Sequence record: MZ560701
DNA from: Escherichia phage vB_EcoM_TU01
Reading direction: 5' to 3' (one strand)
DNA length: 64,000 nt
Shown here: piece after piece, positions 17,158 through 46,678 of the stretch
Layout: every line of letters starts with the position of its first letter
Numbering within the stretch: the first letter of the stretch is position 1
Made by a program: the position numbers and the translations under genes
Notes under the pieces: generated by a model
Told to the model about the DNA's origin: nothing
The model's database searches: none
What the model saw: only the letters and a program-made list of their open reading frames with translations

Positions 17158-17413
17158 AGTGTATGGGTATGACTCTACTATTCATAAATGCATTTATTGT
17201 GATAATGCGAAACGATTGCTGACTGTTAAGAAACAGCCATTCGAATTCATTAATGTTATGCCAGAAAAAGGTGTGTTCGATGATGAGAAAATTGCTGAGC
17301 TTCTGGTTAAGCTTGGACGTGAATCACAAGTCGGATTGACTATGCCTCAAGTGTTTGCTCCTGATGGAANTTCGATTGGTGGATTTGACCAACTACGAGA
17401 ATATTTTAAATGA
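17150..17413 (+). CDS. nrdC: glutaredoxin-like thioredoxin
   Basis: MFKVYGYDSTIHKCIYCDNAKRLLTVKKQPFEFINVMPEKGVFDDEKIAEL... matches T4 NrdC. Confidence 0.9.
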   Translation: MFKVYGYDSTIHKCIYCDNAKRLLTVKKQPFEFINVMPEKGVFDDEKIAELLVKLGRESQVGLTMPQVFAPDGXSIGGFDQLREYFK

Positions 17414-17766
17414 CATATTCATTAAATCTTAAAGATTTCCAAGATGTATACGAAGTTTGTGCCAATGAACTTGGTCCTGATGCTCCAACTATTATTGAAG
17501 TTTTAAATGTGCTCCCTTCATCATTAGCTTACGAAGCCAAATCATGGGGTTGGAACGACACTGTCGTTCGTGATGACCTTTACGTCCTGATGAACGATAT
17601 GATGGTTAAAAAGGCAGAACCGGTTGCACCAATGGTTACCATTACCGTTGAAGAATATAATCGCCTGCAAGCCATTGAAGAGCTTCTGTGGAACATTGAA
17701 TGTGACCTGCCTTCAGGGCTAGAATCCTGGATTGATTATGAAGAGCTCAATAAACTCCGGGGTTAA
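17410..17766 (+). CDS. hypothetical protein
   Basis: ATGA overlap with nrdC. Confidence 0.5.
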   Translation: MTYSLNLKDFQDVYEVCANELGPDAPTIIEVLNVLPSSLAYEAKSWGWNDTVVRDDLYVLMNDMMVKKAEPVAPMVTITVEEYNRLQAIEELLWNIECDLPSGLESWIDYEELNKLRG

Positions 17767-17894
17767 ACCGTGGTATTCTGCTCGATGGGAGACTGTCGAG
17801 CCAGACGTCGAAACGGTTTACAACGACGAAGAANCATGTTATGATGAACCTTCAATAAATGAATTAATTGATATGGAAATGGGAAGAGATTATT

Positions 17895-18065
17895 ATGCAA
17901 GTTAAATTATTGTACCGTTTATTAAAAAATGGCAAACATGATTGGTATTTGCTTATTAAAACCGATCCGAATTTTTTCTCTGGACAACCATTTACAGTTC
18001 GTCCTACTAAACGTCAGCTTCGCAAAGCTAAACGTTCTCATCGTAACTTTTATAGAGGATATTGA
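17895..18065 (+). CDS. small protein with basic C-terminal RPTKRQLRKAKR tail (family member 1)
   Basis: ...FTVRPTKRQLRKAKRSHRNFYRGY. Confidence 0.4.
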   Translation: MQVKLLYRLLKNGKHDWYLLIKTDPNFFSGQPFTVRPTKRQLRKAKRSHRNFYRGY

Positions 18066-18066
18066 T

Positions 18067-18480
18067 ATGAATATTTCTGAAACTCGCGGTAAATGGTTCA
18101 AGATTGTTAAAGAAGACGAAGAACTACAAGNNAAGTTTCCTGAATTAAAGAAAGNTACAATCGTCAAGGTAATTGGTACTACTACCGAAGATGGTTATGG
18201 CGACCACGGCATTATCGAAGTGATGTTGAACACAGGTGAGAAACTTTGCATCTATGACCGTGATACTTCTCTTTGGTGCTTCTGGGAATCCCATTCAATA
18301 GATGAACTCGAAGAAATTGACCAAGTAGTTTGTGATNGTGGACTTGGCGAATTTGAAGGTGAACGTATTTCTTATGCTTTAGCTAAATTAGCAGCCCAAG
18401 AAAATAATGACGGTTATGAAGGTAATCTGATGCAAGCCGCAGCGGAATACATTGAATATTTAGAAAGACGTTTAAGTTAA
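18067..18480 (+). CDS. hypothetical acidic protein
   Basis: in-frame ATG right after upstream stop. Confidence 0.45.
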   Translation: MNISETRGKWFKIVKEDEELQXKFPELKKXTIVKVIGTTTEDGYGDHGIIEVMLNTGEKLCIYDRDTSLWCFWESHSIDELEEIDQVVCDXGLGEFEGERISYALAKLAAQENNDGYEGNLMQAAAEYIEYLERRLS

Positions 18481-18489
18481 GGGCTTATT

Positions 18490-18669
18490 ATGAAAACTGC
18501 ATTATTTTTTGGCGAAAGAACAAACGGTCAAAAATCTTGGAAATTTGTTATAATTGGTGCTCCAAACAATCCGAACATGAGGACTTCAATCATTTCGGTA
18601 ACACGTCCTACTAAAAGAATGATTCGTCAATATAAACGTTTTCATCGAGACTTTTATAACGTTTACTAA
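18490..18669 (+). CDS. small protein with basic C-terminal RPTKRMIRQYKR tail (family member 2)
   Basis: ...SVTRPTKRMIRQYKRFHRDFYNVY; below track size cutoff. Confidence 0.4.
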   Translation: MKTALFFGERTNGQKSWKFVIIGAPNNPNMRTSIISVTRPTKRMIRQYKRFHRDFYNVY

Positions 18670-18671
18670 AT

Positions 18672-18701
18672 TATAAATACCCTTATCTANTANGGTAAGG
18701 G
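18672..18701 (+). promoter_or_regulatory. late promoter TATAAATA plus RBS-sequestering hairpin upstream of gene 49
   Basis: TATAAATA 18672-18679; stem CCCTTA (18680-18685) / TAAGGG (18696-18701) includes the SD. Confidence 0.6.
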
Positions 18702-18707
18702 TTTATC

Positions 18708-45958: not shown

Positions 45959-46276
45959 ATGAAAACCATCGATTGTAAAGCAGAATTTAAGATTTTTTAT
46001 CACGGTTCAAGTAGTTCAGCTAACATCGAAAACATGCTTTGTCCTCCTGAAGAAACAGGAGTTCTGTCTGAAACTGGACGTAAGAAAAACTTGGATCGTG
46101 TGTTCTTTACTGAAGATATCGGTTTAGCAAAGATTTATGCAGGACGAGCAGCACGCTCTTATGGAGGTGAACCACGACTCTATCGAGTAATTTCTCCGGT
46201 AGACGTAGTTCAAATGAATAATACTAAAGGTGCTACAGTTTATCACGCTGAATGGGCATTTTGCGAGGAAATATGA
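45959..46276 (+). CDS. hypothetical protein (contains YHGSSS motif)
   Basis: 105 aa; directly precedes dmd. Confidence 0.45.
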   Translation: MKTIDCKAEFKIFYHGSSSSANIENMLCPPEETGVLSETGRKKNLDRVFFTEDIGLAKIYAGRAARSYGGEPRLYRVISPVDVVQMNNTKGATVYHAEWAFCEEI

Positions 46277-46464
46277 GCAAATTAACTAAAGTTACTTTTA
46301 TCGGTTGGTTTAAAAGCGGTGAGATGTTCACTAAAGATATCATGTTATCAGGTGATCGCGAAGAAATCGAGTGGGTTACGGTACAACTTGCTGAAGTGAA
46401 CAAAGCATTAGTTAAAGCATTTGTTAATGACGAGAAAGTTTTTGAAGCTGATTTCAGAGGATAA
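46273..46464 (+). CDS. dmd: Dmd antitoxin (discriminator of mRNA degradation)
   Basis: MSKLTKVTFIGWFKSGEMFTKDIMLSGD...QLAEVNKALVKAFVNDEKVFEADFRG resembles T4 Dmd as recalled. Confidence 0.75.
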   Translation: MSKLTKVTFIGWFKSGEMFTKDIMLSGDREEIEWVTVQLAEVNKALVKAFVNDEKVFEADFRG

Positions 46465-46465
46465 T

Positions 46466-46678
46466 ATGTATTCAACTGTGTTTAAACCATCAACATACGA
46501 ATTTGCATCAACTACACAATGGAAAGCTCTTATTCTGGAAGGATGGGAACTAATGATGGATTGTGAAGCATCTGAAAAGTTTCCACACGGCAAAGTGGAC
46601 TTCGTTAAATTTGCTGTACGTCCGACTAAACGACAGATTCGTCAAGAAAAACGCAAATTTCGCAAAAGTTTAAAATAA
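46466..46678 (+). CDS. small protein with basic C-terminal RPTKRQIRQEKRKFR tail (family member 3)
   Basis: ...FAVRPTKRQIRQEKRKFRKSLK. Confidence 0.45.
   Translation: MYSTVFKPSTYEFASTTQWKALILEGWELMMDCEASEKFPHGKVDFVKFAVRPTKRQIRQEKRKFRKSLK

Follow-up and report, generated by a model that had tools for sequence, protein, structure and literature searches.

Two short predicted paralogs of the toxin inhibitor TifA bracket pin in a Mosigvirus-like phage genome

Few phage counter-defence proteins are understood mechanistically, and TifA, which is one of them, works in an unusual way, by trapping a toxin on cellular RNA. Here we describe two short proteins that appear to belong to the same family and that are encoded by the open reading frames (ORFs) ORF-A and ORF-B, which lie on either side of pin in a 64,000-nucleotide stretch of DNA from Escherichia phage vB_EcoM_TU01 (sequence record MZ560701; this whole stretch is referred to below as the window). 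Phage T4 evades toxIN, a plasmid-borne toxin-antitoxin (TA) system of type III, by amplification of dmd-tifA, and ToxN is neutralised by the TifA proteins of T2, T4, T6 and RB69 (Srikant et al., PMC9391042). The same authors termed the dmd-tifA-adfA region an 'anti-TA island' and showed that Dsr1 is overcome by nrdC.5, which belongs to the nrdC region (PMC9391042).

The predicted fold of TifA consists of a three-stranded sheet packed on a basic C-terminal helix with a Pro-Thr cap (Guegler et al., PMC10853763). Synthetic TifA-RB69 binds RNAs of 15-45 nucleotides (nt) with dissociation constants (KD) of 2.3-0.36 uM; the binding shows no sequence specificity, with enrichment of 16S rRNA, and ToxN is held together with TifA on high-molecular-weight RNA, mainly 16S rRNA (PMC10853763). 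The P53A/T54A and K55A/R56A/R59A variants of TifA-RB69 lose both RNA co-purification and ToxN neutralisation, and the equivalent variants of TifA-T4 lose ToxN co-precipitation; these two proteins are the only ones for which RNA binding via the basic helix has been demonstrated (PMC10853763). TifA homologs are nevertheless toxin-specific: four of ten were active, and the six others, which are divergent and have an intact basic helix, neutralised neither ToxN nor TenpN (PMC10853763). Specificity maps to a loop around residue 41 that tunes ToxN inhibition. The authors note that the whole family keeps the helix whereas the loop differs among its members, and they suggest that the loop adapts to particular toxins (PMC10853763).

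An earlier note on this DNA had proposed that positions 17895-18669 hold a small-protein family with a conserved basic C-terminal tail, (V/T)RPTKR(Q/M)(L/I)R. Both the family and the motif are borne out by our analysis, as ORF-A, ORF-B and the window's gp61.4/TifA all match Pfam DUF7279 (PF23945) above its gathering score and carry literal copies of the motif, beginning in ORF-A at nt 17997 and in ORF-B at nt 18601. The ends of the interval coincide exactly with the ATG of ORF-A and the stop codon of ORF-B, and between the two family members it also takes in a third and unrelated gene, pin. The features on which the comparison rests are as follows.

17895 to 18065, plus strand: ORF-A, 56 amino acids (aa), predicted short TifA paralog; orthologue of JS09_097 and RB69ORF089c, annotated as a coding sequence in JS09; matches Pfam DUF7279 at 54.5 bits (cutoff 24.5) and PHROG 3272 at E 1e-26
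17997 to 18023, plus strand: motif VRPTKRQLR in ORF-A, comprising the Pro-Thr helix cap and the first basic residues; aligns with R52-R59 of TifA-RB69
18067 to 18480, plus strand: pin, encoding PinA, the host Lon protease inhibitor, 137 aa; matches Pfam Inhibitor_I24 at E 4e-47 and PHROG 2167; annotated in JS09 and RB69
18490 to 18669, plus strand: ORF-B, 59 aa, predicted short TifA paralog; orthologue of JS09_099 and RB69ORF087c, annotated as a coding sequence in JS09; matches Pfam DUF7279 at 53.8 bits (cutoff 24.5) and PHROG 3272 at E 2e-30
18601 to 18627, plus strand: motif TRPTKRMIR in ORF-B; aligns with R52-R59 of TifA-RB69
46252 to 46464, plus strand: dmd, antitoxin against RnlA/LsoA, immediately upstream of tifA; matches Pfam Dmd at E 9e-22 and PHROG 2102
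46466 to 46678, plus strand: tifA (gp61.4), 70 aa, matches DUF7279 at 72.1 bits; 100% identical to RB69 TifA/gp61.4 (tblastn)
46616 to 46642, plus strand: motif VRPTKRQIR in tifA, the third literal match in the window

The third family member was found by hmmsearch of the six-frame translation with a profile built from B-type sequences plus ORF-A. That DUF7279 is the TifA family follows from the finding that T4 TifA and five more of the TifA homologs in Table S2 of Guegler et al. (PMC10853763) match this model at 57-73 bits. In addition, a profile of the short proteins aligned with a profile of eight Table S2 TifA homologs over 40 columns (hhalign probability 97.1%, E 4.9e-11), and BLASTP aligned ORF-A with the window TifA over the motif (E 7e-7). 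We are therefore almost certain that ORF-A and ORF-B belong to the TifA family. Their locations set them apart from TifA, however: ORF-A and ORF-B flank pin at 17.9-18.7 kilobases (kb), and only the third copy directly follows dmd, about 28 kb from the pin locus. The complete RB69 genome holds exactly three family members, and the idea of further copies hidden elsewhere in the genome was dropped on this ground. A Dmd-like identity of the short proteins was likewise dropped, as neither matches Pfam Dmd (PF17587), for which 46252-46464 is the only match. Neither of them matches the Inhibitor_I24 hidden Markov model (HMM) to which pin corresponds, and pin is not a member of the TifA family.

The tail of ORF-A reads ...FTVRPTKRQLRKAKRSHRNFYRGY and that of ORF-B ...SVTRPTKRMIRQYKRFHRDFYNVY. 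In six-frame translation, the full motif occurs three times in the window and not once in 300 window shuffles, which gave even the RPTKR core at a mean of only 0.03 per shuffle. The arginine codons of the two copies differ (cgt in ORF-A, aga in ORF-B), so that conservation acts on the protein and not on a DNA repeat; a shared 3' cassette, repetitive or regulatory at the DNA level, is thereby ruled out, all the more so as the similarity covers the whole proteins (36% identity over a whole-length BLASTP alignment, E 4e-11). To judge from this alignment, ORF-A and ORF-B are paralogs.

The alignment with TifA is exact where it matters for RNA binding. The earlier note's motif corresponds precisely to R52 P53 T54 K55 R56 Q57 I58 R59 of the window TifA, and the full set of cap and basic positions in TifA-RB69 (P53 T54 K55 R56 R59 K62 R63 R66) recurs with the same spacing in ORF-A (R36 P37 T38 K39 R40 R43 K46 R47 R50) and in ORF-B (R39 P40 T41 K42 R43 R46 K49 R50 R53). 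On this correspondence, both short proteins retain every residue known to be required for TifA RNA binding. The fold of the DUF7279 family is known from prediction alone, no solved structure existing for any member. An AlphaFold2 (AF2) model of ORF-B (predicted local distance difference test score, pLDDT, 87) comprises strands at residues 2-9, 15-24 and 27-36 followed by a helix at 42-58, and that of the window TifA (pLDDT 65) comprises a disordered N-terminus, strands at 19-24, 28-33 and 43-48 and a helix at 55-69. The predicted arrangement of three strands and a helix is thus common to both and agrees with the published description of TifA. Taken together, the likeness to TifA extends to the Pfam family, the predicted fold, an identical cap, six equally spaced basic helix residues and the character of these genes as small accessory genes of the early region; the difference in setting is that ORF-A and ORF-B adjoin pin whereas tifA lies downstream of dmd.

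The remainder of the two proteins departs from TifA. By comparison with TifA-RB69, ORF-A and ORF-B are shorter by 11-14 residues, and by comparison with TifA-T4 by 26-29; they are without the N-terminal extension of about 8-10 residues. The connection between strands 2 and 3 is KTDPNFFSG in ORF-A and GAPNNPNMR in ORF-B, shorter than and unrelated to DCEASEKFPHGK in TifA, and the N-terminal sheet part is net basic in the short proteins (5 K/R against 1-2 D/E) but net acidic in TifA-RB69 (5 against 7). Neither ORF-A nor ORF-B therefore has the extended residue-41 loop or the acidic sheet/loop part of TifA. Because conservation of this loop does not extend to the family at large (PMC10853763), we take the loop to define a ToxN-specific subgroup and not the family as such. 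The calculated isoelectric point (pI) is 11.1 for ORF-A, 11.4 for ORF-B and 9.9 for TifA, and the net charge of the short proteins lies between +10 and +12 (+12 for ORF-A).

A second point of comparison is Dmd (T4 gp61.5), which is encoded in the same window and, like ORF-A and ORF-B, is a small early T-even protein (about 60 aa); it acts against a host endoribonuclease toxin. It differs in having no sequence relationship to ORF-A or ORF-B. Dmd binds its toxin directly and, to our knowledge, is not described as having a basic helix that binds RNA. PinA, the third counterpart at hand, has a core (Inhibitor_I24) that is unrelated to DUF7279; only the tail of the T4-type Pin is shared with the family, and the window Pin lacks that tail.

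We think it most likely that ORF-A and ORF-B are early RNA-binding anti-defence proteins with a host RNA-directed target that is probably not ToxN, a reading to which we give a probability of roughly 0.55. Both are probably expressed early. By analogy with TifA, the Pro-Thr-capped helix, with Lys/Arg at positions i, i+1, i+4, i+7, i+8 and i+11, would bind RNA, which we regard as likely. The divergent sheet/loop face would grip a host RNA-directed defence effector and keep it inactive on bulk cellular RNA; that the pair serves in anti-defence at all is a tentative proposal, with a chance slightly short of even. The effector would be a different one from the ToxN handled by TifA, a step that we take more tentatively still and that is plausible because TifA homologs are toxin-specific, because the loop region of ORF-A and ORF-B is unrelated and because their N-terminal part is net basic. 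The genomic setting speaks in favour of this reading, as the two genes flank pin within an accessory early region. Lon, the target of pin, degrades many protein antitoxins, and together with pin the two ORFs could form a second small anti-toxin cassette, analogous to the dmd-tifA-adfA island. A bolder version, which seems to us somewhat doubtful, is that ORF-A and ORF-B represent a specificity-diversified 'mini-TifA' family whose members each tether a different RNA-targeting immune effector to bulk RNA and are shuffled by microhomology recombination around pin, with the T4 PinA tail as a domesticated fragment; a further type III toxin or an RNase of an unrelated abortive-infection kind could be among the effectors so bound.

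Both the family and its mechanism are already published, and the Pfam model already covers ORF-A and ORF-B. Moreover, the alignment of 'TifA homologs' in Fig. 5C of PMC10853763 includes the A-type sequence of phiE142 (UniProt A0A0U4JDN8), so that the short type was already counted as a TifA homolog by Guegler et al. In PMC9391042, PMC10853763 and later literature we found no account of three paralogs per genome, of the bracketing of pin, of a functional test of the short type or of the origin of the PinA tail, and searches of the literature, whether on 'DUF7279' or on subsequent studies of TifA paralogs, returned nothing. The pair thus offers nothing categorically new, but two credible candidates for new counter-defence specificities that are short and readily synthesised. 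If three paralogs do share a common RNA anchor and differ in the face that chooses the victim, the genome would hold a natural experiment in inhibitor retargeting, whereas if ORF-A and ORF-B merely duplicate TifA or have no phenotype, their description would be routine annotation.

Several observations weigh against an anti-defence role with a target of its own. All ten of the assayed TifA homologs are of the long gp61.4 type, the word 'paralog' appears in neither TifA paper, and pin goes unmentioned in the eLife paper and figures in the Nucleic Acids Research (NAR) paper as a reference only. A very basic protein of 56-59 aa could bind any polyanion, and TifA itself binds single- and double-stranded DNA in vitro (PMC10853763). 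The AF2 models were built from shallow alignments (6 and 9 sequences), with only medium confidence for TifA. ORF-A is nearly invariant among Mosigviruses (dS, the synonymous divergence, below 0.11), and its ratio of nonsynonymous to synonymous divergence (dN/dS) rests on 0-5.5 substitutions per class per pair and gives no firm value. The linkage to pin is not universal, as the family members of the JS10 and Gelderlandvirus loci have no detected pin homolog next to them. Finally, the genes are dispensable in nature: ORF-B is deleted in AlbertHofmann, reduced to its tail in ZQ3, merged with ORF-A in PTK and phiE142 and absent from T4, and ORF-A is frameshifted in the RB69 reference.

The strong overall charge of ORF-A and ORF-B also admits a broader role, in which they would act as general RNA- or ribosome-binding takeover factors with no specific defence target and might stabilise phage mRNA or modulate translation via 16S rRNA. 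Their pI above 11 and net charge of +10 to +12 are distributed across the whole protein and not confined to the helix, no acidic partner-binding surface is evident in either of them, and the lack of sequence specificity and the preference for 16S rRNA reported for TifA (PMC10853763) would suit such a function. Presence/absence polymorphism and fast turnover are, however, typical of accessory genes, for example those for counter-defence, and not of core takeover functions, and the sole characterised member of the family is a toxin-specific inhibitor, so that we regard this explanation as improbable.

It is similarly unlikely, in our view, that the pair supplies redundant or auxiliary ToxN inhibitors, that is, an extra dose of TifA-like activity that would be the natural counterpart of tifA amplification in T4 under toxIN selection. 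The family and the RNA-binding helix are common to all three proteins, and dose evidently matters, as T4 amplifies dmd-tifA against toxIN (PMC9391042). In line with a dose effect, toxIN restricts RB69, which has an intact ORF-B in addition to TifA, far less than T2, T4 or T6 (PMC9391042), and T4 is without ORF-B; yet plasmid-expressed TifA-RB69 alone already explains the stronger inhibition. The helix is evidently insufficient, given that six divergent homologs with intact helices do not neutralise ToxN, and the residue-41 loop is replaced in ORF-A and ORF-B by a shorter, unrelated and non-acidic segment.

The position of the two genes on either side of pin raises the question of a joint action with PinA, on which the variation of the locus among related phages bears. 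Four states were found in Mosigvirus, the rearranged ones being ascribed to independent microhomology deletions. The first, with pin between intact copies of ORF-A and ORF-B, is that of the window, of JS09 and of locus L006. In AlbertHofmann (locus L010, 1785-1880), ORF-A and pin remain and ORF-B has been cleanly deleted. In ZQ3 (locus L011, 1400-1825), ORF-A is kept, and a deletion between ACGTTT microhomologies fuses the last 8 residues of ORF-B to pin, which ends ...LERRFHRDFYNVY, the arginine at the junction being common to pin and ORF-B. In PTK (locus L009, 1228-1398) and phiE142 (locus L008, 3974-4168), pin is lost and ORF-A and ORF-B form a chimera, ...RSHRNFY joined to NVY, with the junction in AACTTTTATA.

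In the Tequatrovirus KIT03 (locus L018, 455-1077), an untailed pin (148 aa) is directly followed by ORF-B. T4 (locus L005, 2398-2883, minus strand) has no B gene, and a deletion joins its pin, after ...SFSDR, in frame to the last 15 B codons (MIQQYKRLHQMFYNT), while in RB32 (locus L002, 1979-2677) the fused pin is succeeded first by a repeated pin 3' end and next by a complete ORF-B. The T4-type PinA tail is retained in T4, RB32 and locus L007. To judge from these junctions, the classical T4 PinA (161 aa) ends in a relic of a TifA paralog, its last 15 residues deriving from a B-type C-terminus, and the in-frame fusion of pin to a B tail arose independently at least twice, in the T4 lineage and in Mosigvirus ZQ3. 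The fusions look like by-products of microhomology deletions, and the rearrangements of the locus resemble the microhomology-mediated ones behind tifA amplification (Srikant et al., PMC9391042). The locus thus illustrates how short homologies within paralogs may delete, fuse and re-assort accessory genes, the origin of the T4 PinA tail included. Upstream of a B-type gene in JS10 (locus L003, 2029-2686), the pin region is broken up into two parts, a fragment of 57 aa and an ORF of 100 aa. Salmonella phage UTK0003, a Gelderlandvirus (locus L004, 2486-2662 and 3024-3194), has two divergent family members, one with KLTPR instead of RPTKR.

The bracketing of pin in Mosigvirus, the position of B behind pin in many Tequatroviruses, the repeated in-frame fusions and the persistence of the T4-type tail in three loci would all accord with a function of ORF-A and ORF-B alongside PinA on Lon, as adaptors, co-inhibitors or Lon-binding peptides, in which the end of the C-terminal helix is functional and for that reason became fused to PinA. 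The fusions omit, however, the RPTK cap and the first basic residues, the very parts that are important in TifA. Nor are the two partners bound to each other: pin has no tail in either the window or KIT03 and no ORF-B beside it in AlbertHofmann, the A::B chimera persists without pin in PTK and phiE142, JS10 and the Gelderlandvirus have family members with no detectable pin, and tifA itself is located about 28 kb away beside dmd. With the fusions looking like products of microhomology deletion, and with no literature found on the function of the PinA C-terminus, we consider a role in Lon inhibition quite unlikely and retain the reading of ORF-A and ORF-B as RNA-binding anti-defence proteins.

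Among phage records, 359 contain B-type sequences (Mosigvirus, Tequatrovirus, Dhakavirus, Gelderlandvirus and others) and about 145 contain A-type sequences with at least 80% identity, those examined being Mosigvirus; TifA is found in 639 records. ORF-B is under purifying selection: over the small number of sequences compared, pairwise Nei-Gojobori dN/dS values are 0.05-0.23, with dS reaching 0.85. That ORF-A and ORF-B are decaying duplicates without present function, as the frameshifted RB69 copy of ORF-A and the deletions and chimeras of several phages might suggest, is highly improbable in view of the intact ORFs in hundreds of genomes, the low dN/dS of ORF-B at such dS and the conservation of the cap and all basic positions despite only 36% identity between the two proteins. 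In the RB69 reference (NC_004928, locus L012, 48375-48573, minus strand; near position 17930 of the window), a homopolymer reads A7 where the window has A6, and RB69ORF089c is annotated as only 38 aa because the extra A shifts the frame; this may be either a real pseudogene or a sequencing error of 2003. Among Mosigviruses (compared across loci L001, L006, L012, L016 and L017), ORF-B is far more diverged (dS 0.15-0.85) than ORF-A (dS below 0.11), only 430 bp away, a difference that points to mosaic exchange of the B segment.

Word-indexed protein searches brought up no more than 5 and 2 close relatives, a search for related loci yielded three loci, and an exhaustive search of representatives added few true relatives. 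NCBIfam holds no model for the DUF7279/TifA family, and public annotation calls its members 'hypothetical protein' or, recently, 'DUF7279 family protein'. Residues 3-34 of ORF-B (18496-18591) resemble the tandem repeats of very large proteins, such as P0010 (655 aa, repeats AVNPNGSKRWEF...). The large repeat proteins P0006, P0010 and P0012 were dismissed as relatives, as what they match in the exhaustive representative search is only the N-terminal hairpin, and the similarity is probably a chance resemblance of a strand-turn-strand unit.

Across the region, the window is 96-98% identical to the Mosigvirus genomes JN02, JS09 and phiC120 of the RB69 group, and by this measure its source is an RB69/JS09-like T-even phage, a Mosigvirus. 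The gene order is nrdC, an RB69ORF091c-like ORF, a 49.1 homolog, ORF-A, pin, ORF-B, gene 49 (endonuclease VII) and nrdD, and the start codon of ORF-A overlaps the stop codon of the 49.1 homolog. Scattered N bases occur in the window, none of them within ORF-A or ORF-B. Two putative transcription signals frame the three genes.

17817 to 17845, plus strand: promoter-like site upstream of ORF-A and within the 49.1 homolog, of sequence TTTACA-17-TATGAT plus a TG extension; a consensus match only
18679 to 18703, plus strand: terminator-like hairpin with TTTAT after it, in the gap from ORF-B to gene 49

The promoter-like site is weak evidence, because the region's count of such sites does not exceed that of shuffles. 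The hairpin has a 10-bp stem (-12.9 kcal/mol, z -2.4, from a fold of N-free JS09-type sequence), is conserved in Tequatrovirus and is labelled as a terminator 3' of ORF-B in several records, ATK48 among them; the early transcription unit probably ends at this hairpin.

Two further ORFs of the window, both on the plus strand, lie near these systems. Directly upstream of dmd, at 45959-46276 and within the anti-TA island of Srikant et al., is a 105-aa ORF that matches PHROG 2110 (unknown function) and has no Pfam match. The 118-aa ORF at 17410-17766 has its counterpart in RB69 in two separate ORFs (ORF092c and ORF091c); it shows weak matches to models of the T7 Gp5.9 RecBCD inhibitor (Pfam E 0.015; PHROG 6234 E 0.03), and for its C-terminal half there is a match at E 1e-32 to PHROG 3402, 'antitoxin from a toxin-antitoxin system'.

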